Source of the DNA: Lysobacterales bacterium
GTDB taxonomy: Bacteria; Pseudomonadota; Gammaproteobacteria; Xanthomonadales; BPKI01
DNA: 64,000 nt
Assembly: GCA_026005055.1 (NCBI GenBank)
Contig: BPKI01000001.1
Location: 918,392 to 982,391 of the forward strand
Direction of reading: 5' to 3'
Shown here: piece by piece, positions 1 to 21,679 of the stretch
Position numbering within the stretch: position 1 is the stretch's first letter
Layout of the letters: every line of letters starts with the position of its first letter
Notes under the pieces: generated by a model
Seen by the model: only the letters and a program-made list of their open reading frames with translations
Database searches by the model: none
Told to the model about the DNA's origin: nothing
Program-made: the position numbers and the translations under genes

Positions 1-1
1 C

Positions 2-1279
2 ATCGAGCGTTACTTCGGAAGCGGCCGCAGCGCGATGGGCACGATCGTCGAGAGCCTCGGCGATGAGGGCGGTGCCGACGAGGACGACGTCGAGCACCTG
101 CGCGATCTGGCGAGCGAGGCCCCGGTCATTCGCCTGGTAAACCTGATCATCCAAAGAGCGGTCGAGCAGCGCGCCTCGGACATCCACATCGAGCCCTTCG
201 AGAACCGGCTCAAGGTGCGCTATCGGATCGATGGGGTATTGCAGGAGGTCGAGGCGCCGCCGGCGAGCTCCACGGCGGCCGTGATCTCCCGGGTCAAGAT
301 CATGGCCAAACTCAACATCGCCGAGCGCAGACTGCCGCAGGATGGGCGGATCATGGTCCGGGTCCAGGGCAAGGAGCTCGATCTACGCGTGTCCACCGTG
401 CCCACCGCCCACGGCGAGAGCGTGGTCATGCGCCTGCTCGATCGCGAGTCGGTGGTCTTCGATTTCCATCGCCTCGGTTTCACCGACGATCTGCTCGAGC
501 GCTTCCTCGCCGTGCTCGATCGCCCCCATGGGATCCTGCTGGTCACGGGCCCGACGGGCTCGGGCAAGACCACGACCCTTTACACCGCGCTCTCCCGGCT
601 CAACACTCCCGACGTCAAGATCATCACCGTCGAGGATCCGGTCGAGTACCAGATCGAGGGGATCAACCAGATCCAGGTCAAGCCGCAGATCGGGCTCGAT
701 TTCGCGCACGCGCTGCGCTCGATCGTCCGCCAGGACCCGGACATCATCATGATCGGCGAGATGCGCGATCTCGAGACCGCGCGCATCGCGATCCAGTCCG
801 CGCTCACCGGCCACTTGGTGCTTTCCACGCTGCACACCAACGATGCCGCCGGCGGGGTGACGCGGCTGCTCGACATGGGGGTGGAGGATTACCTCTTGAG
901 CTCGACGGTCAACGGCATTCTCGCGCAGCGCCTGGTGCGCAAGATTGAGCCGAGCCATGCCGAACGTTACGAGGCTTTGCCGGAGGTCATCGAGGAATTC
1001 GCACTGCGCCGCTTCCAGCCGAACGGACCCATCCACCTCTTCCGGCCCGTCCCCTCGGAGCTCACCTCCACCGGTTATCTCGGTCGCACCATCATCGCCG
1101 AGTTCCTGGTGATGTCCGATGCGATCCGAAGGCTGATCATGCAGCATGCCGAGGCGGGCAAGATCGCCGAGCAGGCGCGCGCGGAGGGGATGCTGACGAT
1201 GTACGAGGACGGGTTGCGCAAGGCGCTTTCGGGCATCACTACGATCGAGGAAGTGCTTCGCGTCACCCAGGAGGGCTGA
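2..1279 (+). CDS. gspE: Type II secretion ATPase GspE/XpsE (5' truncated by window edge)
   Basis: Frame is open from base 2; ASDIHIEP, Walker [45 protein letters not shown]; first gene of gsp operon. Confidence 0.97.
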
Positions 1280-1285
1280 GCGAGG

Positions 1286-2503
1286 GTGGCGCTGTTCCAC
1301 TACCAAGTGCTCACCGCCGCAGGCGAACCGCAGGCCGGCCAGCTCGAGGCCGGGAGCCTCGAGGAGGCGGTCGCTCGGCTACAGGATCAGGGCCATGTGG
1401 TGCTGAAGGCCGTTCCGGCCGATTCCGCCCCTGCGCGCGGTGCCCTCGGACGGCTCTTCGAGCGTCGGGCGCTGTCGGGGGATGAGATCCTCCGGTTCAC
1501 CGAACAGCTCGCCGTCCTGCTCTCCGCCGGACAGCCACTCGACCGGGCCCTCGGCATCCTGCTCGACTTACCCGAGAGCGAGCGGGCGCGCCGCGTGATC
1601 GAAAAGATCCGCGAGGCGGTGCGCGGTGGGGCGAGCCTGTCCGAGGCGCTCGAGCGGCAGCATGGCGTCTTCTCGCGGCTTTATGTGAACATGGTGCGGG
1701 CCGGCGAGGTGGGGGGAGCCCTCGATCAGACGCTGCGCAAGCTGGCGGCGTATCTCGAGCGCCAGGCCGAGCTCAAGCAGCAGGTGATCAGCGCCTCGAT
1801 CTATCCGGCCATTCTCCTCGTCCTGGTCTTCGCCGCGGTGGGCGTGCTCGTCGGTTACGTCGTGCCGCGCTTCATCCCGATCTTCCAGGGCATGGGTCAG
1901 GAGTTACCCTTCGTCACCCGGCTGGTCCTCGGTTTCGGCCTCTTCGTCCAGCGGTGGTGGTGGTTGGGCCTGCTCGCGGTCGGGGCGGCGTTCTACCTGC
2001 TGTCCAGGAGCTTGCGCGATCCCGAGCGTCGGCTCGCCTTCGACACGTGGCTGCTCGCCCGCGGCCGCCTCGGCGCCCTGATCGCGCGTCTCGAGACGGC
2101 TCGTCTCGCCCACACCCTGGGAACTCTCATCCACAGCGGCGTTCCATTGCTGGCAGCCCTGTCGGTGGCCAAGAACGTGACCAGGAACAGTGCTCTTGCC
2201 GAGGCGATCGGGAAGGCGGCGGCGGAGGTGAAGGAGGGCGCGAGCCTGTCCTGGGCGCTGGCCCGTTCGCAGCGCTTCCCCCGGCTCGCCGTGCAGATGA
2301 TCCAGGTGGGCGAGGAATCGGGGGATCTGGCGCCGATGCTCGAGCGTCTGGCCGACACCTTCGAGCAGCAGACGCGCACCGAGATCGACCGGCTCATCGC
2401 CGCCTTGGTGCCGGCGCTCACGGTGGTGATGACCCTGATCGTCGCGCTGATCATGATGGCCATCCTGATCCCGATCCTGAACCTTTCCGCGACTTTCGGA
2501 TGA
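1286..2503 (+). CDS. gspF: T2SS inner membrane platform protein GspF
   Basis: GspF/PilC motifs (FSRLYVNMVRAGEVGG, SASIYP, MIQVGEESGDL), 3 TM segments, follows gspE. Confidence 0.96.
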   Translation: MALFHYQVLTAAGEPQAGQLEAGSLEEAVARLQDQGHVVLKAVPADSAPARGALGRLFERRALSGDEILRFTEQLAVLLSAGQPLDRALGILLDLPESERARRVIEKIREAVRGGASLSEALERQHGVFSRLYVNMVRAGEVGGALDQTLRKLAAYLERQAELKQQVISASIYPAILLVLVFAAVGVLVGYVVPRFIPIFQGMGQELPFVTRLVLGFGLFVQRWWWLGLLAVGAAFYLLSRSLRDPERRLAFDTWLLARGRLGALIARLETARLAHTLGTLIHSGVPLLAALSVAKNVTRNSALAEAIGKAAAEVKEGASLSWALARSQRFPRLAVQMIQVGEESGDLAPMLERLADTFEQQTRTEIDRLIAALVPALTVVMTLIVALIMMAILIPILNLSATFG

Positions 2504-2511
2504 GGACGACC

Positions 2512-2934
2512 ATGAGAAATCCCTTGCCGATGCCGGCCCGCGTCGCCGGCATGACCCTGATCGAAATCCTCGCCGTGATCGTTCTGATCGGCATCGTCAT
2601 GGCGGTGGTGGCGCAGCAGGTCTTCCAGCGGGTGGAGACGGGCAAGTTCAACGCCGCCAAGGCGCAGCTCCAATCCCTCAGCATGAAGATCGAGGCCTAT
2701 GCCCTGGACAACGGCCGACCGCCGCAGCGGCTCGAGGACTTGGTGCAGCGGCCGGGGGATGCACGCAACTGGAACGGCCCTTATGCCCGCGAATCCGATC
2801 TGCGCGATCCCTGGGGCAACGCCTTCGTCTATCGGGTGCCCGGGGAACGCGGGCCCTTCGATCTCATCTCCCTTGGCGCCGATGGACGCCCCGGCGGAGA
2901 GGGCAATGCGCGCGACCTCGGCAACTGGGAGTAA
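2512..2934 (+). CDS. gspG: T2SS major pseudopilin GspG
   Basis: Prepilin site AG|MTLIEILAVIVLIG; NWNGPY, DPWGNAFVY, SLGADGRPGGEG; GAGGA RBS before ATG 2512. Confidence 0.96.
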   Translation: MRNPLPMPARVAGMTLIEILAVIVLIGIVMAVVAQQVFQRVETGKFNAAKAQLQSLSMKIEAYALDNGRPPQRLEDLVQRPGDARNWNGPYARESDLRDPWGNAFVYRVPGERGPFDLISLGADGRPGGEGNARDLGNWE

Positions 2935-3370
2935 CCGCGGTTTCACGCTCATCGAGCTGACCGCGGTCCTGATGCTGGTGGCCATCGGTTTCGCGGCCTT
3001 GAGTTATGGACTGACGGCGCAGCTCGAGAACCAGCGGGTGAAAGCGGCGGCGCGCGAGCTGGTCGCGGCGCTGCGTCAGACCCGCGCCCAGGCCATCCTG
3101 AAAGGTGAATCCCAAGCGCTCGAACTCGATCTGCGCGAGCGCAGCTACCGGGTGCCTGGCCGGGAACCGGTATCGCTGCCGGAGGGCATGGAGCTTCGAA
3201 TGCTCACCGCCCGCAGCGAGCAGATCGATCGGGAGCGCGGGCGCATCCGCTTTTACCGCGACGGCAGCTCGACCGGCGGCAACATCGGGCTGATCAAGGG
3301 CCAGCGCGAGTGGCGCATCGAGGTGGCATGGTTGACCGGCGAGGTCGTTCTGCGGGAGCGCGAGCGATGA
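2906..3370 (+). CDS. gspH: T2SS minor pseudopilin GspH
   Basis: RG|FTLIELTAVL N-methylation motif; IRFYRDGSSTGG; start overlaps gspG end. Confidence 0.9.
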   Translation: MRATSATGSNRGFTLIELTAVLMLVAIGFAALSYGLTAQLENQRVKAAARELVAALRQTRAQAILKGESQALELDLRERSYRVPGREPVSLPEGMELRMLTARSEQIDRERGRIRFYRDGSSTGGNIGLIKGQREWRIEVAWLTGEVVLRERER

Positions 3371-3753
3371 GCGCGCGCCGCGGATTCACCCTGATCGAGG
3401 TGGTGGCGGCGCTTTTCCTGCTCGCGCTCGGCTTCGGCCTATTGATGCAGCTCCTCGGCTCGGCGCTTGCCCAGACGAGACGTGCGGCGTTGCAGACGGA
3501 GATGGCGCTCGCCGCGCAAAGCCTGATCGATCGCTTGGGCATGGATTTTCCGCTGGAACCGGGCGAACGGAGCGGCGAGCTGGGCGGCGGGCTGCGCTAC
3601 CGTCTTTCGATCGAAGAGGATGCGGCGAGCTCCTCCTTGGCGGGAGGAGTACCGCATCCCTGGACCCTGCTGCGGGTACGGCTGAGGCTTTCGGCGGAAG
3701 CCGGGGCCGAAGCCGACTTCGAGACCCTCCGGGTGGGGGTGCGCCAGCCGTGA
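3367..3753 (+). CDS. gspI: T2SS minor pseudopilin GspI
   Basis: RG|FTLIEVVAAL; ATGA overlap with gspH; operon position. Confidence 0.88.
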   Translation: MSARRGFTLIEVVAALFLLALGFGLLMQLLGSALAQTRRAALQTEMALAAQSLIDRLGMDFPLEPGERSGELGGGLRYRLSIEEDAASSSLAGGVPHPWTLLRVRLRLSAEAGAEADFETLRVGVRQP

Positions 3754-4454
3754 TCAGGGCGCGGGGCTTCACCTTGGTCGAGCTCGTCGCGGCGCTCACG
3801 CTCTTCGCGCTGCTTACCGCCATCGCCTTCGGCATCATGGGCTCGGCCACCCGCGCCGCAGCCAGCGGGGAGCGCCTCGCCGATTCCGTGGAGCGGGTGC
3901 GGGTGGCCCAGGAGTTCTTGCGGCGTCAGATCGCGCTCGCCCTCCCGCTCGCCTTCGCGAGCGATCCTACGAGCGGAGCGCCGGTGATCTTCGAGGGGGA
4001 TTCGCGCGAGCTCCGCTTCGTCGCGCAGATGCCGGGTCATCTCGGCGAAGGCGGGCCGCGCCGGCAGCTGATCAGGCTCGAGCAGGACGGCCGCGAGATG
4101 GCGCTCGTCTTCCGCCATCTCCCTCTGCACCCGGCGGAGGAAGACAGCCGAATCGAAGACACCGAGCCGGTGGTGCTGCTCGCTGGCATTCGTGACGGTG
4201 GCTTCCGCTACCGCGGGCTCGATGGGGCCGCCGAGCCGGGCGAATGGCGCGATCGCTGGGAGGAGAGCGCACAGCCGCCGGTGTGGGTGGAGCTTCAGTT
4301 GGAGCTCGACCCGGAAGTGCATCGCACGATCTGGCCTCCGCTGCTGATCGCGCTTCAGATCGACGGCGTTCCGGGCGGAGCGTTCCTGTTCGGACCGGCG
4401 CCGGGCGGTGTGGATTTCGGGCCGCGTCCTCCGACTGGAGGTGGGGAACGATGA
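3750..4454 (+). CDS. gspJ: T2SS minor pseudopilin GspJ
   Basis: RG|FTLVELVAAL; GTGA overlap; operon position. Confidence 0.88.
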   Translation: MIRARGFTLVELVAALTLFALLTAIAFGIMGSATRAAASGERLADSVERVRVAQEFLRRQIALALPLAFASDPTSGAPVIFEGDSRELRFVAQMPGHLGEGGPRRQLIRLEQDGREMALVFRHLPLHPAEEDSRIEDTEPVVLLAGIRDGGFRYRGLDGAAEPGEWRDRWEESAQPPVWVELQLELDPEVHRTIWPPLLIALQIDGVPGGAFLFGPAPGGVDFGPRPPTGGGER

Positions 4455-5359
4455 GCGCATCCCCTCCTCTGGTGCGCCGCGGGATCGCGCTGGTTCTCGT
4501 CATCTGGGCCACGGCCTTGCTCACCGTGACGCTGGGCGGTTTCGTCCTGATCGCCCGTGCCGAAAGCTTGATTGCCCGTCACCACCTGGACGGCGTCAGG
4601 GCGCGGCTGGCTGCCGAAGCGGGGATCCATCACGCCGCGTACAAGCTCTCCGAGCTGGAACCGACGGCGCGCTGGATCGGGGATGGCCGGAGCTACCGTC
4701 TCCAGATCGGGGATGCCGAGGTCGAGGTCGCGCTCACCGACGAAAGCGGCAAGATCGATCTCAACGCCGCCGACGAGGCCGTTCTCAAGTCCCTGTTCGT
4801 TCAGACCGGCGGGCTGCCGGAGGAGGAGGCGGCCGCGCTTGCCGATGCGATTCTCGACTGGCGGGACGAGGATGATCTGGTGCGTGCCAATGGCGCCGAG
4901 CGCGAGGATTATCGCCGGGCGGGTTTCCCCTACGTGCCGAGCAATCGCGCCTTCGCGACGGTGGAGGAGCTGCTGCAGGTGATGGGGATGAGTTACCCCT
5001 TGTTCCAGCGTGTCGAGCCGGCCCTCACCGTGCATTCCGGAATGTCCCAGCCCAATCCCGCCTTCGCGCCGCTCGAGGCCTTGATGGTCTTTCCCGGAAT
5101 GACCGAGGCCCTCGCCTCGAGCTTGATCCAGCAGCGGCAGCAGGTACCGCCCGAGATGATGGGCCAGCCCATCGGCCAGCTGCCCGATGGAACCCCCGTG
5201 ATCTCGCAGTTCGGTGGGCTCGCGTATAGTATTCGGGTTCGCGCGGTTCTACCGACCGGCGCCTCCCGCGAGTTTCATTACACCATCCGGCTCGGCATGC
5301 AGGCTCGGGCCGGTCGTCCGTTTCACGTCCTTCGCTTCCGCGAAGGGGATCCGTCCTGA
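4451..5359 (+). CDS. gspK: T2SS minor pseudopilin GspK
   Basis: RG|IALVLVIW (no Glu5, typical of GspK), DESGKIDLN, DAILDWRDEDD, FATVEELLQVMGM. Confidence 0.93.
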   Translation: MSASPPLVRRGIALVLVIWATALLTVTLGGFVLIARAESLIARHHLDGVRARLAAEAGIHHAAYKLSELEPTARWIGDGRSYRLQIGDAEVEVALTDESGKIDLNAADEAVLKSLFVQTGGLPEEEAAALADAILDWRDEDDLVRANGAEREDYRRAGFPYVPSNRAFATVEELLQVMGMSYPLFQRVEPALTVHSGMSQPNPAFAPLEALMVFPGMTEALASSLIQQRQQVPPEMMGQPIGQLPDGTPVISQFGGLAYSIRVRAVLPTGASREFHYTIRLGMQARAGRPFHVLRFREGDPS

Positions 5360-5361
5360 GC

Positions 5362-6489
5362 ATGGCGATCGCCGCCGACACCGAACGCATCCTGGCGCGT
5401 CTGAAACTGCGCTACCAGCGTTCCTCCTTGCCGGCATTCTTTCGCTGGTGGGGGGGTGAGCTGAAAGCCCTCCTGCCGCGCGCCTGGCGGGAGGCGATCG
5501 CGCGGCGTCCTCGGGCGGTTTACGTGATCGGTGAGGGAAATCGGCTCCATCTCCGGCGTCCCGATGGCGAGGAGCTGACCGCGGTGGCGCTCGAGGATCC
5601 GCCTGCGGAGCGCAGGCTTCGCATCGTCGAGGCGCTCGCCGCCCTCGGCGAGGAGCGACCTCCCGTGATCCTCGCGGTTCCCGCCGATCGCGCGCTGCGT
5701 CGAAGGCTGAGGTTTCCCGAGGCGGTCGAGGAAAGCCTCGAGCAGGCGCTCGTCTACGAGATCGACCGGCAGACCCCCTTCCGCGCCGAGGAGGTCTATT
5801 TCGGTGTACGGCTCGTCGATCGAGACCGTGAAGCTCGCCAGGTCGAGGTCGAGCTGGTGGTGGTTCCGCGTGCGATCGCCGATCCGTGGCTGGCGGCGGC
5901 GCGCGAATCGGGTCTGCCGGTCTTCGGCTTGGATGCTTGCGACGAGGAAGGCAATCCCCTGGGGTTCAACCTGCTGCCGCGCGGCGAACGGGTGCGGCTG
6001 CCGGATCGTCGCCGCCGGCTCAACCTCATCCTCGCGGCGACGGCATCGGTCCTCGCATTGATCGCGATGCACCTTTGGCTCGCCAATCGCGAGCACGCGC
6101 TCTCACGGATGCGGGCGGAGGTCGAACGGCTGCGTGAGGAAGCGCGCACCGTCGCTGCGCTGCGCGAGGAACTCGAACGCGCGGTCGCCAGCGCGAGGTT
6201 CCTTTCCGAGCGGCGAAGCAAGCAGCCGCCGCTGATCCTCGTAATGGACGAACTCAGTCGGATCATTCCTGATGACACCTTCCTGGAGCAGCTCAACGTG
6301 AGCCAGGGACAGGCGGCCCTTCGCGGCCTCAGCCCCTCGGCGGCGAATCTCATCGGGCTCTTGCAGCAGTCGCGCTATCTCGCCGAGCCTTCGTTCCAGA
6401 GCGCCATCCAGCCCGACCCGCGCTACGGCAAGGAGCGCTTCGACCTCAAAGCGGTGCTCAAGGCGCATGTGGGAGAGCCTTCATCATGA
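5362..6489 (+). CDS. gspL: T2SS protein GspL/XpsL (PilN-like C-terminus)
   Basis: FFRWWGGEL, EIDRQTPF, FNLLP then one TM and coiled coil; operon position. Confidence 0.88.
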   Translation: MAIAADTERILARLKLRYQRSSLPAFFRWWGGELKALLPRAWREAIARRPRAVYVIGEGNRLHLRRPDGEELTAVALEDPPAERRLRIVEALAALGEERPPVILAVPADRALRRRLRFPEAVEESLEQALVYEIDRQTPFRAEEVYFGVRLVDRDREARQVEVELVVVPRAIADPWLAAARESGLPVFGLDACDEEGNPLGFNLLPRGERVRLPDRRRRLNLILAATASVLALIAMHLWLANREHALSRMRAEVERLREEARTVAALREELERAVASARFLSERRSKQPPLILVMDELSRIIPDDTFLEQLNVSQGQAALRGLSPSAANLIGLLQQSRYLAEPSFQSAIQPDPRYGKERFDLKAVLKAHVGEPSS

Positions 6490-7094
6490 GCCGAGATCGG
6501 CTTCTCGCCGTTGGGCTCCTGCTGGCGAGCGTGGCGCTCGCCTATTTCCTCGGCGTGCACTGGTGGTTCGTCGCCGGCCATCGGGCGATTGCCCGCGAGA
6601 TGGCCGATCTCGCCGAGCAGGCCGCTCGCTTTCAAGCGATCATCGCCCAGCGTCCCGAGATCGAGGCGCGGCTCGAGCGGGTTCGCGCTTTCGAGGCGAC
6701 GAATCCGGCCTTTTTGCAAGATCCCAACTTCGATCAGGCGAGCGCCACGCTCATCACGCGCTTGCGTCAGAGCGTCGAGATGCATGCCGGGCGCAGCCCG
6801 CAGGGCTGTCAGGTGCTGAGCAACCAGCCCCTTCGTTCGCGGGAGGCGGAGCCATTCCTCAGGGTCACGCTCAGTGTGCGCCTGCGCTGTGGCCTCGAGG
6901 CGCTGGTCGCGGTGCTCCATGATCTGGAGGGCGGGACGCCGATGCTGTTTGTGGATGAGTTGACTATCCTCAGTCGGCGTTTCGGGGTGCCTGGCGTGCG
7001 TCAAAACTTCCCAGGGGCGCCGCAGGACTACACCGACGTCAACTTCGCGCTTTACGGCTATCTGCGACAGGAGGGAGGCGCCAATGCCCGGTGA
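6486..7094 (+). CDS. gspM: T2SS protein GspM/XpsM
   Basis: N-terminal TM, coiled coil, LHDLEGGTPMLFVDEL, FALYGYL; operon position. Confidence 0.88.
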   Translation: MSRDRLLAVGLLLASVALAYFLGVHWWFVAGHRAIAREMADLAEQAARFQAIIAQRPEIEARLERVRAFEATNPAFLQDPNFDQASATLITRLRQSVEMHAGRSPQGCQVLSNQPLRSREAEPFLRVTLSVRLRCGLEALVAVLHDLEGGTPMLFVDELTILSRRFGVPGVRQNFPGAPQDYTDVNFALYGYLRQEGGANAR

Positions 7095-7764
7095 TCCGAG
7101 GCAGGTCCTGACCCTCGCCCTGGCCGGGTTGAGCCTTCTCTCGGCGATCGTGGTCGCCCTCGAACTCGCCGGCCTGGGCCGAGGGTATCGTCTGCCTGAT
7201 CCGGTCCCGCAGGCGTCACTGCCCGAGCTCACGGTGGAGGAGGGCCTCGCCCGGCTTCCGCCGCTCGAGACCTTCGCGGCGGCGATCGAGCGCCCGCTGT
7301 TCGAACCCGATCGCCGTCCGCCGCCCCCACTCGTGTCCGAAAATCCCGCGCCGGTGCCGGAGCCGAAGCCCGAGGCACCGCCGCTCGAGGTCAGAGTCAC
7401 GGGGATCGTGGTCACGCCAGAGCTGCGGCTGGTGATGGTCCGCCCTCCTGGCGCGCCGGACTCGGTGGTGCTGCGCGAGGGAATGCCGCTACCGGGCGAT
7501 TTCGCTGCTTGGAAAGTGGCGCGCGTCCTCCCGCGGCAGGTCGAGTTCGAGGGCGGCGGGCAGATGCGCAGTACCGTGACCTTGGAGGTCGACAAGTCGG
7601 TTCGTGAGGTTGCGCCGCTCACCGGCGAGATCCCGCAACCGGCCGCCTCGAATCCCGATCTCGAGGTCCAGCGCCGCGCTGAGGAGATCCGGCGTCGCAT
7701 CGAAGAGCGTCGTCGGCAGCTTCGCGAGGAGGCCGCCCGACTGGGAGGACCTGAAAAACAATGA
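7084..7764 (+). CDS. gspN: XpsN-type T2SS protein (GspC-like function)
   Basis: N-terminal TM, ERPLFEPDRRP motif, VTGIVVTP; between M and D as in xps operons. Confidence 0.8.
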   Translation: MPGDPRQVLTLALAGLSLLSAIVVALELAGLGRGYRLPDPVPQASLPELTVEEGLARLPPLETFAAAIERPLFEPDRRPPPPLVSENPAPVPEPKPEAPPLEVRVTGIVVTPELRLVMVRPPGAPDSVVLREGMPLPGDFAAWKVARVLPRQVEFEGGGQMRSTVTLEVDKSVREVAPLTGEIPQPAASNPDLEVQRRAEEIRRRIEERRRQLREEAARLGGPEKQ

Positions 7765-11960: not shown

Positions 11961-11982
11961 TCGTTCGGTCATCCGGCCTTCG

Positions 11983-13765: not shown

Positions 13766-13767
13766 GT

Positions 13768-13865
13768 GGCTTCGGTCTTCGAAAGGTCGTGTGGCGCGCC
13801 TGAGGTCGTTTGCTCGCCGCGCCTAGGCGGAGCTTGACGCGTGTGGGCCGTCCGAGACCGAAGCC
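13768..13865. repeat. Inverted repeat closing a 98-nt hairpin
   Basis: GGCTTCGGTCT (13768-13778) / AGACCGAAGCC (13855-13865), perfect 11 bp, with further internal pairing. Confidence 0.7.
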
Positions 13866-13892
13866 GGGGCCCGAGGACAAGGCAGAATTCCA

Positions 13893-14813
13893 GTGCTGGC
13901 ACAGTTCCCGTTTCTGCTCGGCCGTGCGCTGATGGCGGCGACGGTCGTGGTGTCTGGTGGAGGGCAGTCCGTTTCCCTCGAGGACGTGGACGCCCGTGTC
14001 GCCCGTATTCCTGCGCAGGACCGCGGCACCTTCATGGACAGCCCGCGGCGGATTGAGGAGCTTCTGCGTCAGCTGCTGACCCACAAGCAGCTGGCCGCTC
14101 GGGCGCGGGAAGCAGGCTTGGACCAGGGCGAGGACTTCGAGGCCGAGGTGCGGGTTGCGGTCAATGAAATCCTCGCCCGGCGGTATCTCGAGCATATCGA
14201 GCGCACGACGCCGCGGCCGGACTTCGAGAAGGCGGCACGTGAACGCTACCTGGCGGATGCCTCCCTCGGAACGATTCCCGAGAATCGCGAGGTGTCGCAC
14301 ATTCTGGTCTCGACGCAAGGCCGGTCGGAAGCGGAAGCGCTCGCCAAGGCGCGGCAGCTCCGTGCGCAGCTGCTCGCCGATCCCTCGCGCTTCGAGGCGC
14401 TCGCCGAGAGCGAGTCGGACGACCCCTCGGCCAAGCAGAATCGCGGTCGCCTCGGGCCTTTGCGGCCGGAGTTCGTCGAGGAGTTCAACGAGGCTGCTCG
14501 TCGGCTCGCCAAGGTGGGCGACATCAGCGAGCCGGTCCGGACGAGCTTCGGGTTTCATCTGATCCGCCTCGATCGTCTCGATCCGCCGCGCCGCCAAAGT
14601 TTCGAGGAGGCGCGTCCTGCGCTGGTGATGAGGCTCGAGCAGGAATGGTTGCAGAGCCTCCGCCGGCGGGTCTTGGACGAGGTCCAGGGGCAACCGATCG
14701 AGGCCGATCCCGACTTGGTGGCCTCTCTGCGCTGGCGTTACCTGCCGCCGGAGATCGCCAAACAACGGCAAGCCGAGTACGAAGCCTGGAAGAAGAGCTC
14801 GGCGACTCACTGA
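13893..14813 (+). CDS. Parvulin (PpiC-type) peptidyl-prolyl isomerase, PrsA/EpsD-like
   Basis: VSHILV, FEALAESESDDPS, GRLG, EFNEAA, GDISEPVRTSFGFHLIRL. Confidence 0.9.
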   Translation: MLAQFPFLLGRALMAATVVVSGGGQSVSLEDVDARVARIPAQDRGTFMDSPRRIEELLRQLLTHKQLAARAREAGLDQGEDFEAEVRVAVNEILARRYLEHIERTTPRPDFEKAARERYLADASLGTIPENREVSHILVSTQGRSEAEALAKARQLRAQLLADPSRFEALAESESDDPSAKQNRGRLGPLRPEFVEEFNEAARRLAKVGDISEPVRTSFGFHLIRLDRLDPPRRQSFEEARPALVMRLEQEWLQSLRRRVLDEVQGQPIEADPDLVASLRWRYLPPEIAKQRQAEYEAWKKSSATH

Positions 14814-15108: not shown

Positions 15109-15882
15109 ATGACGCCCCGCTGCGACCTCTTCCGCCATTTCGTCCGGCAGGAGCTCAAGCGCCGATACCTCGGGACCTTGGGCTCTGCGGCTTGGGCGCT
15201 CATTCATCCGCTCGTCCAGTTCGCGGTCTATGCGACCGTCTTCGCGGTGATCTTCGCTGCGCGGGTGCCCGAGCGGCCGGAGGTTCCTTTCGGCGCATGG
15301 CTTGCGATCGCGCTGTGGCCTTGGTTCGCCTTCTCCGAGGCGATCAGCCGGGCGGCTGCCATCGTTCCCGAACATGCCGCCCTGATCGGGAAAGTCGCCC
15401 TTCCGATCGAGCTGCTGCCACTAGCGGTGGTGGCGGCGAGTTTCTTCCTGCATGGCCTGGGTTACTCGGTCGTTCTCCTGGCGCTCGCGGTGATGGGCTA
15501 CCCATTGAGCCCGTGGGGTTTGCTTCTGGCGCCTGCGCTGTTGGCGGTGCTCTTTGCGCTCGCGCTCGGTGTCGCGCTCGCGGTCGCGGCGCTCTCGGTC
15601 TTTCTGCGAGACGTGGCGCAGATCACGGCGCAGCTTCTGATGCTCGCTTTCTTCCTGACGCCGATTTTTTACTCCCGGGAGATGCTGCCGGAGCCTTGGC
15701 GGCCGATGCTCGATCTCAATCCGCTGACCGCCGTGGTCGAGGGATTGCGTTACGCTTGGCTCGACACGCCCCCTCCGACCGCGCAGGGGATCGCTCTCGC
15801 GCTGGCCTACGCGGCGTCGTTCCTGTTCGGCGGTTGGTGGCTTTTCCGCCGTACCGCGGGTCACTTCCACGATTACCTGTGA
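15109..15882 (+). CDS. wzm: ABC-2 polysaccharide exporter permease Wzm
   Basis: RYLGTLGSAAWALIHPL, LIGKVALP, RDVAQI, FFLTPIFY, LNPLT; 6 TM. Confidence 0.93.
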   Translation: MTPRCDLFRHFVRQELKRRYLGTLGSAAWALIHPLVQFAVYATVFAVIFAARVPERPEVPFGAWLAIALWPWFAFSEAISRAAAIVPEHAALIGKVALPIELLPLAVVAASFFLHGLGYSVVLLALAVMGYPLSPWGLLLAPALLAVLFALALGVALAVAALSVFLRDVAQITAQLLMLAFFLTPIFYSREMLPEPWRPMLDLNPLTAVVEGLRYAWLDTPPPTAQGIALALAYAASFLFGGWWLFRRTAGHFHDYL

Positions 15883-17060
15883 GCGAGCCCCTTCTTCTCG
15901 AAGCCCGGGGTTTGTGTAAGCGCTACCCTAGAACCGGTACCGGCCGCGAGCGCCTGCTCTCGCTGTGGAGCTTGCTGCGCGGCCGTGAGCGCTCCGATGC
16001 GATCGAGGTGCTCAAGCCGCTCGATCTCTTCGTCCGTCGTGGCGAGTCGCTCGGCATCATCGGCGAGAACGGCGCAGGAAAGTCCACCCTCCTCAAGCTG
16101 GTGACCGGGGTGATACGACCTTCCGCTGGCGTGGTGAGAATTCACGGTCGGGTCGGCGCCCTGCTCGAACTCGGTGCCGGTTTCCATCCCGAGCTGTCGG
16201 GGCGTGAAAACGTGCGTGCGAGCGCTTTGTTGAGCGGGATGAGCGCGGCCGAAGTGGAGGCACGCATGGAGGAGATTCTCGCCTTCGCCGACATCGGTCG
16301 GGCGGTGGACGAACCGGTCAAGCATTATTCGACCGGCATGGTCGTCCGCCTCGGTTTTGCGGTGATCGTCGCGCTTCGGCCCGAGCTTCTGATCACCGAC
16401 GAAGTGCTCGCCGTTGGCGACGAATCGTTCCAGAAGAAGTGCATCGCCTGGCTCGAGGACTATCTTTCGGCCGGCGGCACGCTGTTGCTCGTGTCGCACA
16501 GCATGTACCACGTGCAGAAACTCTGCCGCCGCGCGCTGTGGCTGAAGGATGGGGCGGTCGCGGCCCAAGGCGACGTCTTCGAAGTGACCCAGGCCTACCT
16601 CGCGTACCATGAACGCAAGCAGGCCCGGAGTCGAGCCGAGACCGCACGCGGCTCCTCTGCGGAGGGGTATCGGATCATCTCCGCCGAGCTCAACGGGGAG
16701 ACGGCGCGCGACGGCCTGATCCTGCTTCAAGGTGCGGAGCTCGAGATCCGCGCCGAGGTGGACTCGCCCGACGATCGGCCGCCGGTGCTCGCGGTCGGAA
16801 TCGTGCGCCTGGATGGGACGCCGGTCTATGGGGTCAGCTCGGAAATGGACGGAGCCCGGCCGGAACGCATCGAAGCCCGCCGCTATCGCTTCCGCCTGCG
16901 CTTTCCGGAACTGCCTTTGCTGCCCGGGGGTTATGCCCTGCGGGTGCATCCGCTCGATCCCGAGGGGCTGAGGCTCTTCGACACGGCGGAGTGGGAGTTC
17001 TTCGTGCGAGGGGAGTCGCGCGAGTTCGGGATGGTGCGTCTGCCCCATCGCTGGGAATGA
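15879..17060 (+). CDS. wzt: Polysaccharide ABC exporter ATPase Wzt with C-terminal Wzt-C domain
   Basis: GENGAGKST, LLELGAGFHPELSGREN, YSTGMVVRLGF, DEVLAVGDESFQKKC, plus about 140-aa beta-rich C-terminal extension; GTGA overlap with wzm. Confidence 0.93.
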   Translation: MSEPLLLEARGLCKRYPRTGTGRERLLSLWSLLRGRERSDAIEVLKPLDLFVRRGESLGIIGENGAGKSTLLKLVTGVIRPSAGVVRIHGRVGALLELGAGFHPELSGRENVRASALLSGMSAAEVEARMEEILAFADIGRAVDEPVKHYSTGMVVRLGFAVIVALRPELLITDEVLAVGDESFQKKCIAWLEDYLSAGGTLLLVSHSMYHVQKLCRRALWLKDGAVAAQGDVFEVTQAYLAYHERKQARSRAETARGSSAEGYRIISAELNGETARDGLILLQGAELEIRAEVDSPDDRPPVLAVGIVRLDGTPVYGVSSEMDGARPERIEARRYRFRLRFPELPLLPGGYALRVHPLDPEGLRLFDTAEWEFFVRGESREFGMVRLPHRWE

Positions 17061-17881
17061 TGTTCACCGTCATCATTCCCGTCTTCGACGCCCCAGAGGC
17101 GCTTGCGCGCTGCCTCGATAGCCTCGATGTCAGGGGGCTTGAGCAGGCGAGCGTGCTCATCGTCGATGATGCTTCGCGCGACCCGAGGACGGGACGGCTG
17201 ATCGAAGCCTTCGTCGCGCGGGATCCCGCACGGCGCCGGAGCATCCGAAATCCGGAGAATCGCGGCTTCGTGCATTCGGTGAACCGCGGGTTCCGAGAGA
17301 GCGAGGGCGATGTGGTGCTGCTCAACTCGGACACGGTGGTGACCTCGGGTTGGCTTCAGGGTCTTCGCCGCTGCCTCGACAGCGATCCGCGCATCGCCAC
17401 CGCCACGCCATGGTCGAACAACGCCACGATTTGCTCTTTGCCGCGCTTCCTCGAGGCGAACCCGGAGCCCGAAGACCCCGAGCGCTGGGCGAAAGCGGTG
17501 CGCGCCAAGGGCGCGCCGATCTATCCCGCGATCCCGACGGCGGTGGGCTTCTGCATGGCGATTCGCCGGCAGGCGCTTCGCGAGCTCGGCGACTTCGACG
17601 AGGCCACGTTCGGCCGCGGCTACGGCGAGGAAAACGACTTTTGCATGCGCGCCGCCGCCTTCGGTTGGCGCCACGTGCTCTGCGATGACGTCTATGTCGT
17701 GCACCAGGGAGGTGCCTCGTTTTCCCTCACCGGTGAGAAGCCAGGCGGACAGGCACTCGCCCGCCTTTCCGCCCGCTATCCGCACTACGAGCGGATGATT
17801 GCCGAATTCATCGCGGCCGACCCGCTCAGACCGCTTCGCGAGGCGGCGATCCTCGCCTTCGAACGCCTCGAGGATGCCTGA
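17057..17881 (+). CDS. Glycosyltransferase family 2
   Basis: VIIPVF, IVDDAS, NRGFVHSVNRG, LLNSDT, GYGEENDFCMR. Confidence 0.93.
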   Translation: MMFTVIIPVFDAPEALARCLDSLDVRGLEQASVLIVDDASRDPRTGRLIEAFVARDPARRRSIRNPENRGFVHSVNRGFRESEGDVVLLNSDTVVTSGWLQGLRRCLDSDPRIATATPWSNNATICSLPRFLEANPEPEDPERWAKAVRAKGAPIYPAIPTAVGFCMAIRRQALRELGDFDEATFGRGYGEENDFCMRAAAFGWRHVLCDDVYVVHQGGASFSLTGEKPGGQALARLSARYPHYERMIAEFIAADPLRPLREAAILAFERLEDA

Positions 17882-18285
17882 GCGCGGTCATCCCGAGGCT
17901 CGGCATCCCCCTTGGCATCAAGACGGCGATCGGAAGCTCGAGAGCGCCTCGCACCCCTGGGGGTCATCCGCATCGGCCCTCTCGTATCATCGATGCCTCG
18001 GCAAGCCGCTTGTGGCGAGGCAAGCCGGGAAAGGGCCAGGCGCTCGCAAGGGCGCACCGGAGCGGAGCGTGGACCTCGGTGGTACGGTTCGAGGCAGACG
18101 GCCTCGGCGCGAAGCGTGCTCGACCCGGTCGTGCCTTGTCGTGCCTCCACCGGCGCTTCGTGCCGGATCGCGAGGCCGCTGGATGAAGGAGCCCTTGCGC
18201 GAGAGAGCGCGCCGAATTGGCGCACACCCCGCATTCGTCCCCGCTTCGCGCTTAGACTGGGTGTCCCCTTGACCAGCCCATCCCG

Positions 18286-19131
18286 ATGAGCGAGCTTCCG
18301 ACGCTACCTTTCACCGGTGAGCGCTTCACGCCGGAGTGCGTGCGCGAGATTTGGTACGAGCACTGGCACCGCTACGCCTTTGCCAGTGTGTTCGCGCGCG
18401 GCAAGCGGGTGCTCGATGCCGCCTGCGGCGAGGGCTACGGCGCGGCGCTGCTCGCGCGTCAGGCCGCCAGTGTGGTGGGGGTGGATCTCTGCGCGGACAC
18501 CATCGCCCATGCCCGGCGGCGTTATCAGGGCTTCCCGAACCTCTGCTTTCTGCGCGCGGATGTCACCGATCTGCCCGAGGGCCTCGGCCGATTCGACCTC
18601 ATCGTGTCCTTCGAGACGCTCGAGCACGTGGCCGAGCAGGAGCGGATGCTCGCCGGCCTCGCGCGGCTGCTCGCCGAGGATGGCTTAGTGCTGATCTCCT
18701 CGCCGGAGCGGCGGGTCTATAGCGAGAAAAGCGGCTATCGCAATCCCTTCCACCATCGCGAGCTCACCCGCGAGGAGCTCGAGGCGCTGCTTCGCCGGTA
18801 TTTCCCCGCCTTCCGGCTTTATGGGCAGAAACTGTTGTTCCAATCGGCGCTGTGGCGGCTCGATGGGCAGGAGCGCGAGTACCTGATGCAGACCATGGAG
18901 GAGAATGGGGAGCTCGTGCCGGAGCCGCGCTACGAGGCGGTTTATTACCTGGCCGTCTGCGCCCGCCATCCCGCGGCCTTGCCGCAGCTTCCGGGACTCG
19001 CGCTGTTCGGCGATCGGGCCGAGTCGGTGTATCGGCACTACAACGAGGAGGTCGGCAAACACATTCGGGCGGGGCTTCGCATCCAGGAGCTCGAGCGCGA
19101 GCTTGCGGCGCTCAAAGGCGGTGGGCGATGA
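18286..19131 (+). CDS. Class I SAM-dependent methyltransferase (glycan-locus type)
   Basis: FTGERF, EHWHRY, VLDAACGEGYG, FDLIVSFETLEH, NPFH; short C-terminal coiled coil. Confidence 0.92.
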   Translation: MSELPTLPFTGERFTPECVREIWYEHWHRYAFASVFARGKRVLDAACGEGYGAALLARQAASVVGVDLCADTIAHARRRYQGFPNLCFLRADVTDLPEGLGRFDLIVSFETLEHVAEQERMLAGLARLLAEDGLVLISSPERRVYSEKSGYRNPFHHRELTREELEALLRRYFPAFRLYGQKLLFQSALWRLDGQEREYLMQTMEENGELVPEPRYEAVYYLAVCARHPAALPQLPGLALFGDRAESVYRHYNEEVGKHIRAGLRIQELERELAALKGGGR

Positions 19132-20786
19132 GGCCTGAGGAGCTCTACGCCTCGGTCGGGGGTACGGCGGCGATCCTGAGGATCGGGGAGATTGGCTTTC
19201 TTCCTGAGCTTCAGACGCGTTCGGTGGTGCTGAGCGAGGTGTTGGTGGCCATCCTTCACCACGCCCGCCCGTTCCGCAGCCTGAGCGAGCACCTCGCCGA
19301 GATTCCGCCACGAATCGGCCTTCTGCCGCCGCAGGATCCACGCTGGCGCGAGATGCTCGATGCGCTCATCGCGCAGGGTCTGCTGCGCAGCCTCGATCGC
19401 TGGATTGCGGATGCGGCCGCGATCCGAAGCGAGCAGGCGGTACCGCGGGCGATCCTGCTCTGTGGCCCGCCGTCGCGAGCGCGCGCCTGGTGCGAGGCGA
19501 TGGCGGTTTCCTTTCCGAGTTTGCCGATCGTGCTCGTGCACGACGAGGCGCCTGAGGGCGATTGGCCCGCTCAGCTTCGCTGGCTGAGCCCCGCCCAAAT
19601 CGCCGATTTGCTGCCGGCGGCCGCACGCGTGATCGAGCCGCTCAGCGAGCCTGTGCTTCGTGCCCTCCAGGGGGCTCTTCTGCTCGCCGCTGGCGAGGTG
19701 GTGCTTCTCGCCGAAACGCGATTGCAGCCGCCGCTGCGCGCCTTTCCCATCGCCGCGACGGGCGTGGGCCTCGCGCCGCTGCGCACTCCCGAGGAGTGGG
19801 TCGAGCTTCCTGCGGCGGAGGCGGTCCAAGCCGGCGAGTCCGCCTCCGCCGAGGCCCTGGCCGCGATGCTCGTGCCGCTCGGACGTTCGATCGGGGAATG
19901 GCTGAGCGCACTCGACCCGATCGACCTCGCGGCGAGCGCCCATCGCTTTGCACCCAGCCTGGTGACGCCCGGCTATTTTTTCCACCGCCTCGCGACGGTC
20001 ACCATCGGCCGCCGCGGCCGCATTCCTCCTGGGCTTTGGCAGTTCGAGCACGAGCCTGCTCCCGGGGCGATTCCCGATGCTGCCGCTTACGCCGAATGGT
20101 TGCGGGGTCCGAGCGGGGCAATCGGCGTGCAAAAGCCTCGGGTCAACCTCCCGCGCTTGGGGCGGTTGAACGCCCTCGATCTCAGGCACCTCTTCCCGGC
20201 CCCGCTGCTGGGCAGCGGGGCAGGCGCCGCCTCACTCTGGACGGAAACCGTCCATGTCCTCAACCCGGGTTTGCTCGGCTTGAGCTGGCCGCTGACCGCT
20301 CTCGGCGATCGCGCTTCCGAGGGCGGCTGGTTGCTGTCGGAACCGGTGGGCAGTGCTGAACAGCTCTTGGCCGACTGGGTCCGCCGCGCGGGCGACTCGG
20401 TGCGCGCTGCCCACCCGGCCGAGCGCTGCGCGAGCTTGCGTCGCTGGCTCGAGGACTACGCCTTATCCAGCGATGAACATCTCAAGCGGGACCTCGTCGA
20501 GTATCGGCTCATCGCCCTCTCCGAGCATCTGCGGACCATGAGCGAGCTGTTGCAAGGCCCGCTTCCGCCCGGCACGGCGCCGGAGTGGCGCGAGGGCCTG
20601 GCGATCGCTTTTCGAAGGATCGCGGCGGGCGTGACCGGCGGCGAGGATGCGCCCGTTCCCGATGCCTGGCGCAGCCCCGAGGCGGTGCGAGCCCTCGTCC
20701 GTGCCTATTCCCGGGCACTGGGGGATTTCTGCGAGGCCTACCTCGAAGCCTTGGACCGGCGGCCGCTCGAGCGAGTGCTCGCATAG
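19128..20786 (+). CDS. Hypothetical protein (552 aa) in glycan operon
   Basis: ATGA overlap with methyltransferase, 2-nt gap to next GT; long ORF with host-like codon use. Confidence 0.75.
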   Translation: MRPEELYASVGGTAAILRIGEIGFLPELQTRSVVLSEVLVAILHHARPFRSLSEHLAEIPPRIGLLPPQDPRWREMLDALIAQGLLRSLDRWIADAAAIRSEQAVPRAILLCGPPSRARAWCEAMAVSFPSLPIVLVHDEAPEGDWPAQLRWLSPAQIADLLPAAARVIEPLSEPVLRALQGALLLAAGEVVLLAETRLQPPLRAFPIAATGVGLAPLRTPEEWVELPAAEAVQAGESASAEALAAMLVPLGRSIGEWLSALDPIDLAASAHRFAPSLVTPGYFFHRLATVTIGRRGRIPPGLWQFEHEPAPGAIPDAAAYAEWLRGPSGAIGVQKPRVNLPRLGRLNALDLRHLFPAPLLGSGAGAASLWTETVHVLNPGLLGLSWPLTALGDRASEGGWLLSEPVGSAEQLLADWVRRAGDSVRAAHPAERCASLRRWLEDYALSSDEHLKRDLVEYRLIALSEHLRTMSELLQGPLPPGTAPEWREGLAIAFRRIAAGVTGGEDAPVPDAWRSPEAVRALVRAYSRALGDFCEAYLEALDRRPLERVLA

Positions 20787-20788
20787 GG

Positions 20789-21662
20789 ATGAGCGAGGCG
20801 CCTGAGCTCGCCGCAGTGGTGGTGGCTTGCGACAGCGGCCCGTGGCTGGCCGAGTGCGTTCGCCGACTGCGGGCCAGCCAGCCGCCGGTCGAACTGGTGG
20901 TGGTGGACAATGCCTCTCGGGACGGGAGCACCAAGACCCTCGCCGAGCAGGGGGTGCGCGTGCTCCGCAACCCGCGCAATCTCGGTTTCGCCGCCGCCTG
21001 CAATCAAGGCGCGAGGGCGAGCACCGCCCCCTACCTCGCCTTCGTCAATCCCGACGTCCTCCTCGAGCCGGAGACGCTCGCCCGGCTGCTCGCGAAGATT
21101 CGTCCGCGGCGCGAGATCGGACTGATCGGTGCGTGCCTCTACGATGCCGAAGGTCGGCGCGATCCGGCTTGCCGCAGGCGCGATCCCACGCCCTGGCGCT
21201 CCTTGATGAGCATCACCGGGCTTTCGCGCTTGTCGCGCCGTTGGCCGGCGCTTTCCGGCATCGAAGCCGATCCGGTGCCGATGCCCGAGCACATCGAGTA
21301 TCCCGATGCAGTCTCGGGGGCCCTGATCCTGATGCCGCGGGCAGCGTTCGAGAAAGTGGGCGGCTTCGACGAGGGCTATTTCCTGCACGGCGAGGACCTC
21401 GATCTCTGCCGGCGCGTGCGGCAAGCCGGCTTGCGGGTGGCCCTTGCCGCCGACGTCGAGGCCCTCCACCTGCGGGGAACCTCCAGCCGCAGACGGCCCG
21501 TGTTCGTCGCCTGGCACAAGCATCGCGGGATGGTGCGCTATTTCCGTCGGCACGAGCGTGCGCGCACGCCTTGGCCGTGGCGACACCTGGTGGTGCCTGC
21601 GATCTGGGCCTGGTTCGGCTTGCGCCTGCCCCTGCTCCTCGTGCGCGGGCTTGCGGAGCGAC

Positions 21663-21679
<17 letters not shown>
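20789..21679 (+). CDS. Glycosyltransferase family 2 (WbbL/rhamnosyltransferase-like)
   Basis: VVVDNASRDGS, NLGFAAACNQG, FVNPD, VSGALILM, GGFDEGYFLHGEDLDLC. Confidence 0.92.

Follow-up and report, generated by a model that had tools for sequence, protein, structure and literature searches.

A predicted NpdA-type S-layer cassette with secretion, folding and glycan-export genes in a Lysobacterales genome

The stretch of DNA analysed here (the window, 64,000 nucleotides) covers positions 918392-982391 of the 2.44-Mb single-contig genome of a Lysobacterales bacterium (GenBank assembly GCA_026005055.1, contig BPKI01000001.1). It opens with a block of genes that we read as a complete cassette of the NpdA type for a surface layer (S-layer), with proposed routes for the folding, export and dual attachment of the layer protein; the probability of this reading is put at roughly 0.7. 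The block encodes a type II secretion system (T2SS), a 136-aa lipoprotein with a predicted NTF2-like fold, a 493-aa protein of the NpdA family, a Cys-rich secreted protein, a parvulin-type peptidylprolyl isomerase (PPIase) and a Wzm/Wzt-type ATP-binding cassette (ABC) exporter, the latter accompanied by genes for a methyltransferase and two family 2 glycosyltransferases (GT2). A sequence-only reading of the same stretch had taken the T2SS, lipoprotein, layer protein, foldase and glycan exporter for an S-layer module, and the core of that proposal is supported here. It had also regarded the module as uncharacterised, which does not hold, as the NpdA family was described in 2011 (Shetty et al., PMC3110197) and 2023 (Gajbhiye et al., PMC10765051), with orthologs in Xanthomonadales.

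S-layer proteins are usually too variable to be found by sequence, and NpdA, with thousands of relatives, is an exception. Its relatives occur in nitrifiers, sulphur oxidisers, plant pathogens and bacteria of hot springs or mats. The parts of the published NpdA work covered here name the layer protein and the adjacent T2SS, and leave folding, export and attachment open. The S-layer family is therefore already known, and it is the conserved accessory set that is not described in the main text of the two NpdA papers (PMC10765051, PMC3110197). This set consists of the lipoprotein, the parvulin and the capped-glycan exporter, plus a fifth secreted protein in Lysobacterales, and it comes with one concrete binding prediction. 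The predicted pair of NpdA and the lipoprotein is the chief part without mention in that main text. As to the neighbours of npdA, the main text of PMC10765051 takes up the upstream gsp genes alone, and isomerase, lipoprotein, LPS, O-antigen, polysaccharide and glycosylation are not mentioned in it outside the reference list.

The layer protein and its conserved neighbourhood

NpdA has been identified as an S-layer protein by knock-out, proteomics and microscopy, including cryo-electron microscopy (PMC3110197, PMC10765051). Knock-out of npdA abolishes the S-layer in Delftia acidovorans Cs1-4 (PMC3110197) and in Paracidovorax citrulli AAC00-1 (PMC10765051). The earlier S-layer reading of the gene at 10479-11960 is borne out by its homology to this experimentally S-layer-forming family.

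Of 8000 candidates scored as relatives of the 493-aa protein, at least 5168 reached E <= 0.001, and the family comprises 3414 representatives of 50% clusters, some of which have a length of ~950 aa and contain two copies. The protein Nhal_3646 of Nitrosococcus halophilus shows 48% identity over the full length, and the other named relatives belong to Ahniella (annotated as 'cell surface protein'), Dokdonella, Tahibacter, Chiayiivirga, Rudaea, Wenzhouxiangella and a metagenome-assembled genome labelled Rhodanobacter denitrificans. These taxa overlap with Table 3 of PMC10765051 in Nitrosococcus halophilus, Wenzhouxiangella, Chiayiivirga, Rhodanobacter denitrificans, Rudaea, Tahibacter and Dokdonella. 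The same table gives the orthologs from Chiayiivirga, Rudaea, Tahibacter and Dokdonella as those of Xanthomonadales, and one member of this order, Rudaea cellulosilytica, has been imaged with an S-layer (PMC10765051). A second homolog search in the protein collection, seeded with the protein of genome G019, together with a cluster look-up of 10 proteins, returned no Comamonadaceae name and confirmed Nhal_3646 alone. When the plasmid collection was searched by tblastn with the 493-aa protein, one record matched, that of Comamonas odontotermitis, a species present in Table 2 of PMC10765051. Its 'cell surface protein' is 29.6% identical to the 493-aa protein (E 1e-27) over residues 31-397, which is 74% of the query, and tblastn limited to the Comamonas locus extended the alignment to residues 1-397. 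On the basis of the Comamonas homology, the taxa and the neighbourhood, the membership of the 493-aa protein in the NpdA family is established short of a direct alignment with the reference protein.

The published NpdA carries a signal peptide of 25 aa, is without conserved domains, weighs ~52 kDa when mature, forms oligomers stable in sodium dodecyl sulphate and is encoded behind 12 gsp genes (PMC10765051). The window protein resembles NpdA of Comamonadaceae in its signal peptide of ~25 aa, its size of ~50 kDa, the lack of a Pfam domain and the position of its gene behind a gsp cluster of the same order, and differs from it in the low sequence identity given above. Its hydrophobic N-terminus is kept in 30 aligned members, with an Ala-x-Ala-type site before residue 27. 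No Pfam or NCBIfam model, and with them no catalytic family, matched the protein.

Nothing related to the NpdA-family protein was found in the PDB by sequence or profile. Its structural model, searched against the PDB with Foldseek, found no counterpart at E <= 0.001; galectin-7 came closest (1e-2). The comparison of the model with 48,161 chains by VIA-align gave TM1070 (1nc7; Z 8.6, root-mean-square deviation 2.9, 108 residues aligned), which covers model residues 32-235, followed by a next match with Z 5.2. The likeness to TM1070 is that of a common beta-sandwich in a predicted model, from which no function is drawn. In the ESM Atlas, the protein matched only unnamed clusters and one cluster auto-named 'Cell surface protein family protein'. 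The npdA-family gene is present in a single copy in the genome studied. Some members of the family are ~930-1650 aa long and contain two NpdA-like stretches, and genome G253 holds three NpdA-like matches within ~12 kb (C2:142000-154000), plus the lipoprotein and the parvulin.

A lack of neighbourhood conservation had been named earlier as an outcome that would speak against the module. The check was strongly positive, with near-complete adjacency in 80 related loci. These are the best 80 of 591 confirmed genome loci and are biased towards Lysobacterales-like genomes; the denominators below are loci with enough flank, and a gene was counted only on the same strand and on the expected side of npdA. 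The lipoprotein gene was present in 76 of 77 loci, and the secretion genes were found nearly as regularly (gspD, upstream, in 66/67; gspL in 63/64; gspF in 58/61). The parvulin gene accompanied npdA in 63 of 67 loci, wzm in 60 of 65 and wzt in 59 of 63, while the methyltransferase and the second GT2 were found in 55/60 and 49/57, respectively. Judged from these counts, the conservation of gene order is far beyond chance. One locus, L031, carries a stray npdA copy with none of the cassette genes.

The distant loci come from 401 genomes sampled evenly across the class, in 13 of which the NpdA family was present. Genome G019 has the lipoprotein, npdA, parvulin, wzm, wzt, methyltransferase and GT2 genes with no gsp gene within 8 kb, and G346 has them in an altered order, in which wzm and wzt come first, followed by the lipoprotein, npdA, parvulin, methyltransferase and two GT2 genes. 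In G284 and G101, npdA is accompanied by gspL, gspD, wzm, wzt, methyltransferase and GT2 genes, in G215 by gsp, lipoprotein and parvulin genes, and in G253 several npdA paralogs occur with the lipoprotein and the parvulin. The company of the cassette genes thus persists in rearranged or gsp-free loci (L100, L106). In the two genomes of one genus, G284 (C6:109037-111056) and G101 (C45:12485-14504), the NpdA match crosses one TAA codon and the lipoprotein match one TGA codon; these may be split genes, pseudogenes or alignments that run past the true ends.

The locus of Comamonas odontotermitis (NZ_CP083452.1, 296351-331568) contains, in this order, rfbBDAC, gspE-gspM, a hypothetical gene, gspD, a gene for a 122-aa hypothetical protein and the gene of the cell surface protein, followed by genes for a peptidylprolyl isomerase, an ABC permease, an ABC ATPase, two methyltransferases and GT2s. 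The 122-aa protein is a homolog of the lipoprotein (E 7e-14) and has a lipobox. Each product of the Comamonas cassette matches its counterpart from the window, so that the association spans two classes and the same accessory genes follow npdA in both. The Comamonas locus differs from Lysobacterales-type loci in that it is without the extra secreted protein that these carry between npdA and the parvulin gene. The 372-kb record is labelled a 'plasmid', yet with argB, slmA, a pantothenate kinase gene and rfbBDAC among its genes it looks more like a chromid or a piece of a chromosome. One of its glycan genes, a 3.7-kb gene with a methyltransferase domain, contains a match to the first GT2 of the window.

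The extra protein of Lysobacterales-type loci is Cys-rich and has a conserved C-terminal domain of ~200 aa. A jackhmmer search seeded with its C-terminal 207 residues gave 70 matches among 8502 stop-to-stop open reading frames (ORFs) of the 80 loci. All but one of these (69/70) lie just downstream of npdA on the same strand, which corresponds to 67 of the 72 loci with enough flank. In 61 of 67 loci, npdA and the parvulin gene are 1.4-2.05 kb apart. The N-terminal parts of the homologs vary: the protein studied has InlB-B repeats, and others have PKD domains or no part that could be recognised. As tblastn had detected the Cys-rich protein in no more than 17 loci, the space ahead of the parvulin gene had at first looked like a 'variable slot', an impression overturned by the profile search. 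Searches of the distant loci, of Comamonas and of the rest of the genome did not detect the C-terminal domain, and the ESM Atlas gave nothing useful for it. The Cys-rich protein is thus, by its distribution in the loci searched, a lineage-specific (Lysobacterales-type) fifth member of the cassette. A second protein, encoded on the minus strand in another part of the same genome (G000:C1:1670778-1671191), resembles the Cys-rich protein in the InlB-B-type repeats (61% identical over 139 residues), not in the C-terminal domain. The parvulin shows weak matches to the PrsA, SurA and EpsD models and occurs in Comamonas as well as in the distant loci L100, L103, L104/L105 and L106.

Proposed assembly and the role of the lipoprotein

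In the proposed mechanism, pre-NpdA would cross the inner membrane via Sec, NpdA would fold in the periplasm with the aid of the SurA/PrsA-like parvulin, and the folded protein would be exported through the adjacent T2SS. Two holds at the outer membrane are envisaged. The first would be provided by the co-conserved NTF2-like lipoprotein, for which binding to the N-terminal beta-sandwich of NpdA is predicted. The second would be a glycan resembling an O-chain, which the GT2 enzymes would synthesise, the methyltransferase might cap and Wzm/Wzt would export; Wzt_C is the kind of domain that recognises a capped chain end. The Cys-rich protein would add a further, lineage-specific part to the layer or to its anchoring.

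The 136-aa lipoprotein matched no Pfam or NCBIfam family. A lipobox was found in 78 of the 86 tblastn matches to it within the fetched loci. The AlphaFold (AF2) model, built from a 36-row alignment with a predicted local distance difference test (pLDDT) value of 92.5, is an NTF2-like cone. The Foldseek search gave 49 matches at E <= 0.001, and the listed ones are mostly NTF2-like (best 2jq5, E 4.6e-5); no pilotin of the PulS/AspS type was present among the matches listed, which is not proof of absence.

The profile search of the class sample detected the lipoprotein in 13 of 400 scored genomes, eight of which are among the 13 NpdA-positive ones. In seven of these eight, the lipoprotein lies beside npdA, on the same contig and within a few kb. 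The NpdA-positive genomes without it are G160 and G287 (in both, the match runs to the sequence edge), G158 (5.3-kb contig), and G114 and G237 (weak matches in both). Among the NpdA-negative genomes, the strongest lipoprotein match was found in G082 (E 3.4e-15), followed by G172 (1.7e-10) and three weaker ones. The profile did not detect the lipoprotein in any of the three NpdA-less genomes of the same order; in two of the three, G234 and G382, an Xps-type GspD was matched strongly. As it was not detected in NpdA-less genomes with such a secretin, the lipoprotein appears to track NpdA, not the secretin.

The complex of NpdA (residues 27-493) and the lipoprotein (residues 18-136) was predicted with a score of 0.81 (runs 0.76, 0.81 and 0.84), and the best of three controls reached 0.20; the mark set for this score is reached by 58 of 80 solved complexes and by 2 of 110 mismatched pairs. 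From run to run, 84% or more of the contacts recur, and the pLDDT of the partner is 85 or higher. The predicted contacts join the N-terminal beta-sandwich of NpdA with the sheet face and the C-terminus of the lipoprotein. It is unlikely that the score stems from a memorised structure, because no sequence relative of either chain was found in the PDB and no fold match of NpdA reached E <= 0.001. The lipoprotein is therefore predicted to bind the N-terminal domain of NpdA. The model supports this binding and says nothing on the side of the outer membrane at which it would take place.

The same prediction can be accommodated by a lipoprotein that faces the periplasm and acts as a chaperone or targeting factor, holding folded NpdA, blocking premature lattice formation and handing the protein to the secretin, in which case lipopolysaccharide (LPS) alone would attach the layer. 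We consider this explanation unlikely, although it is the strongest competitor. It draws on the overlap of the lipoprotein start codon with the gspD stop codon in the window, on the silence of the predicted binding as to location and on the inner leaflet of the outer membrane, where ordinary Lol sorting places a lipoprotein and where this one would be expected. Furthermore, in Delftia the reassembly of NpdA needed LPS, not a protein (PMC3110197). What speaks against a periplasmic helper is that the lipoprotein stays beside npdA where no gsp genes are in reach (L100, L106). Nor does it behave as a general part of the T2SS, given its distribution among the NpdA-less genomes of the order, and its NTF2-like fold is unlike that of any pilotin among the matches listed, though this is not proof.

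Secretion system, glycan module and competing explanations

The T2SS adjacent to npdA is, by its sequence matches, of the Xps type with the order E-F-G-H-I-J-K-L-M-N-D, and the full set of E, F, G-K, L, M, N and D genes lies in one operon. The xps genes of Xanthomonas have the same order. GspM scored 155 bits with the NCBIfam XpsM model, above the cut-off of 60. The best model for GspF was XpsF, with 511 bits, below its cut-off of 650, whereas the 427 bits obtained with the GspF model exceed the cut-off; the N gene is a weak XpsN-like match. The likeness to Xps of Xanthomonadaceae thus lies in the gene order, in XpsM above the cut-off and in XpsF as the best model for GspF. The differences are that the XpsF and XpsN scores remain below the curated cut-offs and that the operon is followed here by the S-layer cassette and in an NpdA-less relative by GT2 genes. 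The Xps secretion system of plant-associated Xanthomonadales is thereby placed in an S-layer context.

The genome contains a second, classical T2SS, which is split over two or more places, with gspC (with a PDZ domain), gspD and gspE at ~565,200-569,500 and gspG-L with gspN, of the T2SSN type, at ~2,090,700-2,096,000. No gspM was recognised in the latter block (2.090-2.096 Mb). A further GspE-like ATPase with an MshEN domain is encoded at ~580 kb. Two GspK-type matches are present in the genome, including gspK of the window, and the same number was found in each of five named relatives (two Dokdonella, two Tahibacter and Chiayiivirga), where the NpdA-linked match is the lower one in Pfam. The GspL search in these five gave only weak second matches, and the GspK search was the clearer one.

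The genome G234, of the same order and without NpdA, retains an orthologous Xps cluster (GspE 78%, GspF 53% and GspD 44% identical). Its gspD is directly followed by homologs of the two GT2 genes of the window (L118, C1:1010000-1029999; 9100-12760). Because gspD runs straight into the GT2 genes there, the S-layer genes with wzm/wzt look like an insertion or a deletion in an Xps-plus-GT2 backbone, as though G234 had lost, or had never acquired, the block from the lipoprotein gene to the gene of the 552-aa protein. On the dedication of the T2SS, the genomic evidence is therefore two-sided: a second T2SS is present here and in all five named relatives, whereas an Xps cluster persists in the NpdA-less G234. 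The sequence-only reading had cautioned that linkage alone does not show dedication, and this caution proved justified by the Xps type of the system, by G234 and by the second T2SS.

The arrangement of G234 also lends itself to the view that the backbone is simply inherited, with Xps as the general T2SS, the glycan genes as an ordinary O-antigen locus and npdA with its small partners merely situated between them, and the Xps models match best. We regard this as improbable. The same combination occurs in Comamonadaceae, in rearranged loci and, by its architecture, in Aeromonas, whose T2SS is considered dedicated (PMC10765051, PMC4483657), and the second GspK-type match of this genome and of each of the five named relatives indicates another T2SS.

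The A-layer of Aeromonas (VapA/AhsA, with the Sps T2SS) is comparable in that an E-first T2SS operon and the layer gene lie within an O-antigen cluster with ABC-2-type wzm/wzt (PMC4483657). In Aeromonas salmonicida, the block of T2SS genes and vapA is located between wzm and wzt (PMC4483657), and the T2SS of Aeromonas is regarded as needed for, and dedicated to, the layer (PMC10765051; PMC4483657). This likeness is one of architecture. A difference is that neither a lipoprotein nor a parvulin is found in the part of the gene table covered, with ORFs 14-17 lying outside it (PMC4483657). A layer gene clustered with a secretion system is also known for RsaA of Caulobacter and Slr4 of Pseudoalteromonas, the latter with a T2SS (PMC10765051). 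Both are, however, unrelated beta-helical proteins (PMC7821379), RsaA uses a type I system, and a lipoprotein partner is not described for either in the texts covered.

Judged from family matches, wzm and wzt probably encode an ABC exporter of an undecaprenol-linked glycan, and Wzm, Wzt with Wzt_C, the methyltransferase and the GT2s together are consistent with a polymer that depends on an ABC transporter and has its chain end modified. In NCBIfam, the matches of the Wzm/KpsM and Wzt/TagH types are below the cut-off, and no terminator-specific model matched the methyltransferase. The O-polysaccharides of E. coli O8/O9a are exported by Wzm/Wzt with capping of the chain end. The window resembles this system in Wzm, in Wzt with a C-terminal Wzt_C and in the adjacent S-adenosylmethionine (SAM) methyltransferase and GT2s, and differs from it in that no WbdD-like kinase or coiled-coil terminator was recognised.

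S-layer glycans that are methyl-capped and dependent on an ABC transporter are known from Geobacillus, and the Wzm/Wzt glycan might accordingly be put onto NpdA or the Cys-rich protein, giving an S-layer glycoprotein, instead of serving as the O-chain of an LPS anchor. The company of the glycan genes and npdA even in the rearranged locus L106 and that of methyltransferase genes and the exporter in both classes would suit such a role. We hold it to be quite improbable: the locus contains no oligosaccharyltransferase-like gene (Wzy_C/PglL type or GT-C), the sole Wzy_C match is distant, and the published NpdA work, in the parts covered, reports LPS dependence and does not mention glycosylation (PMC10765051, PMC3110197). 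The O-chain anchor is favoured over the glycosylation of NpdA because the layer protein of Delftia reassembled only with LPS added, as related by Shetty et al. (PMC3110197), and because of the wzm/wzt arrangement of Aeromonas.

Several points weigh against the reading of the locus as a complete, dually attached S-layer cassette. The tie of the 493-aa protein to the reference NpdA, WP_011797163, runs via the taxa, the neighbourhood and the Comamonas record, not via direct alignment. Dedication of the T2SS to NpdA is not supported, as the orthologous cluster of G234 persists without it. The columns of the predicted NpdA-lipoprotein interface are no more conserved than the others (mean entropy 1.56 vs 1.45 in NpdA and 2.40 vs 1.97 in the lipoprotein), and conservation was dropped as support for the complex for want of enrichment. 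By default, the lipoprotein would be on the periplasmic side, a position more in keeping with a chaperone than with an anchor. Since the methyltransferase is of a generic class I kind, the capping of the chain is inferred. Neither an initiating transferase nor a ligase was revealed by the family scans of the locus, and the sole Wzy_C (WaaL-like) match of the genome lies ~850 kb away. Finally, the lattice in the host is a prediction from its genes. Together with the weak beta-sandwich or galectin-like fold matches of the N-terminal domain, this last point would leave room for a secreted adhesin, lectin or enzyme that forms no lattice in this lineage, which is very improbable in view of the membership in the NpdA family, the conserved cassette and the lack of any match to a catalytic family in Pfam or NCBIfam.

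The cassette reading can be extended to a joint one, in which a conserved and unnoticed multi-part NpdA cassette of Beta- and Gammaproteobacteria, with an Aeromonas-like architecture, uses the lipoprotein as a surface tether exported by the T2SS, or as a nucleator of the lattice at the secretin, and the capped glycan as the second attachment. The lipoprotein pullulanase is known to travel through a T2SS to the surface. This extension is tentative, and we place it somewhat below even odds. If it were true, the Xps-type T2SSs, with E first and D last, would descend from an ancestral system of S-layer export or be related to it.

Layout and transcription of the locus

The genes from gspE to the last GT2 all lie on the plus strand, in the order given by the sequence-only reading, as confirmed by the ORF listing, Pfam and NCBIfam (Table 1). 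The end of the co-oriented block at 21679 likewise agrees with that reading. Beyond it lies an ABC-F gene on the minus strand (21663-23351), and a plus-strand ORF at 21444-23441 was dismissed as an antisense shadow of this gene. The start codons of the pseudopilin genes gspG-J are inferred.

Table 1. Genes of the co-oriented block, with positions in the window and the matches or features on which each assignment is based
Gene or product	Position	Strand	Basis
gspE, T2SS ATPase	1-1279, truncated by window start	+	Pfam T2SSE 478 bits; TIGR02533 GspE 649 bits, above cut-off
gspF, inner-membrane platform, Xps-type	1286-2503	+	Pfam T2SSF
gspG, pseudopilin	~2494-2934	+	N_methyl motifs, GspH domain, translations (gspG-J)
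gspH, pseudopilin	~2903-3370	+	as for gspG
gspI, pseudopilin	~3367-3753	+	as for gspG
gspJ, pseudopilin	~3750-4454	+	as for gspG
gspK, minor pseudopilin	~4451-5359	+	T2SSK_1st 70 bits
gspL, PilN-type	5362-6489	+	Pfam PilN
gspM	6486-7094	+	Pfam T2SSM_b; NCBIfam GspM_XpsM 155 bits, cut-off 60
XpsN-like gene	7084-7764	+	weak: XpsN 45 bits, far below cut-off 400
gspD, secretin with N-terminal lipobox	7761-9932	+	Secretin, Secretin_N and N0 domains; TIGR02517 461 bits
NTF2-like lipoprotein, 136 aa	9929-10339	+	lipobox; start codon overlaps gspD stop
npdA-family S-layer protein gene, 493 aa	10479-11960	+	homology; ~26-aa Sec signal
Cys-rich secreted protein, two InlB-B-type repeats	12467-13765	+	Flg_new_2 repeats
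Parvulin PPIase, SurA/PrsA-like, hydrophobic N-terminus	13893-14813	+	Rotamase PF00639 78.5 bits, cut-off 21.7
wzm, ABC-2 permease	15109-15882	+	ABC2_membrane 65 bits
wzt, ATPase with C-terminal Wzt_C	15873-17060	+	ABC_tran 71 bits; Wzt_C 33.3 bits, cut-off 30.4
First GT2	~17057-17881	+	Pfam
Class I SAM methyltransferase	18286-19131	+	Pfam
552-aa protein	19128-20786	+	no family match (family scans)
Second GT2	~20789-21679	+	Pfam

The full-length gspE starts 449 nt upstream of the window (L120:13944-15671) and encodes an N-terminal MshEN domain. Elsewhere, MshEN is a module that binds cyclic di-GMP (c-di-GMP), and export via the NpdA-linked GspE could be controlled by c-di-GMP on the strength of this domain. 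Further upstream are purL and then a 258-aa ORF without a family (L120:13171-13947), which overlaps the start of gspE. The gap of ~400 nt between the first GT2 and the methyltransferase (17881-18286) contains only short plus-strand ORFs (17799-18272 and 17912-18289).

A promoter-like site (TTGCAA, 17 nt, TATCAT) is located upstream of npdA at 10362-10390 and is followed by a 5' leader up to 10478; the consensus scan found one such site where 0.7 were expected. Behind the gene, at 11982-12007, lies a terminator-like hairpin with an 11-bp stem, 8 GC pairs and a T run to 12017. With this promoter-like site and strong terminator, npdA probably forms its own transcription unit.

Seven metatranscriptome runs from three studies cover part of npdA, and four of them were compared, X1-X3 from one sample and X5 from another study. 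In X1-X3, the depth of RNA contigs was 49-153 for npdA and 2.6-10.5 for the gsp, Cys-rich and parvulin contigs listed, with few or no mismatches, and in X5 it was 3.9-11.9 for npdA against 2.7-4.9 for its neighbours; depths of this kind do not allow genes to be ranked. In some runs, RNA contigs leave parts of the gsp and glycan genes uncovered, from which nothing is concluded. The surface protein had earlier been described as strongly expressed. The higher contig depth, the promoter-like site and the terminator point in this direction and amount to a hint. Adapter-flanked contig ends were found at 10413-10415 (X1-X3, in the npdA leader), at 11977-11978 (after npdA) and at 12446, and give a weak hint, as contigs cannot show transcript ends.

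One RNA contig of X3 (1929 nt, 12446-14354) covers the Cys-rich gene and runs into the beginning of the parvulin gene; its own start lies 21 nt before the ATG at 12467. It fits this start codon and possibly reflects co-transcription of the Cys-rich and parvulin genes.

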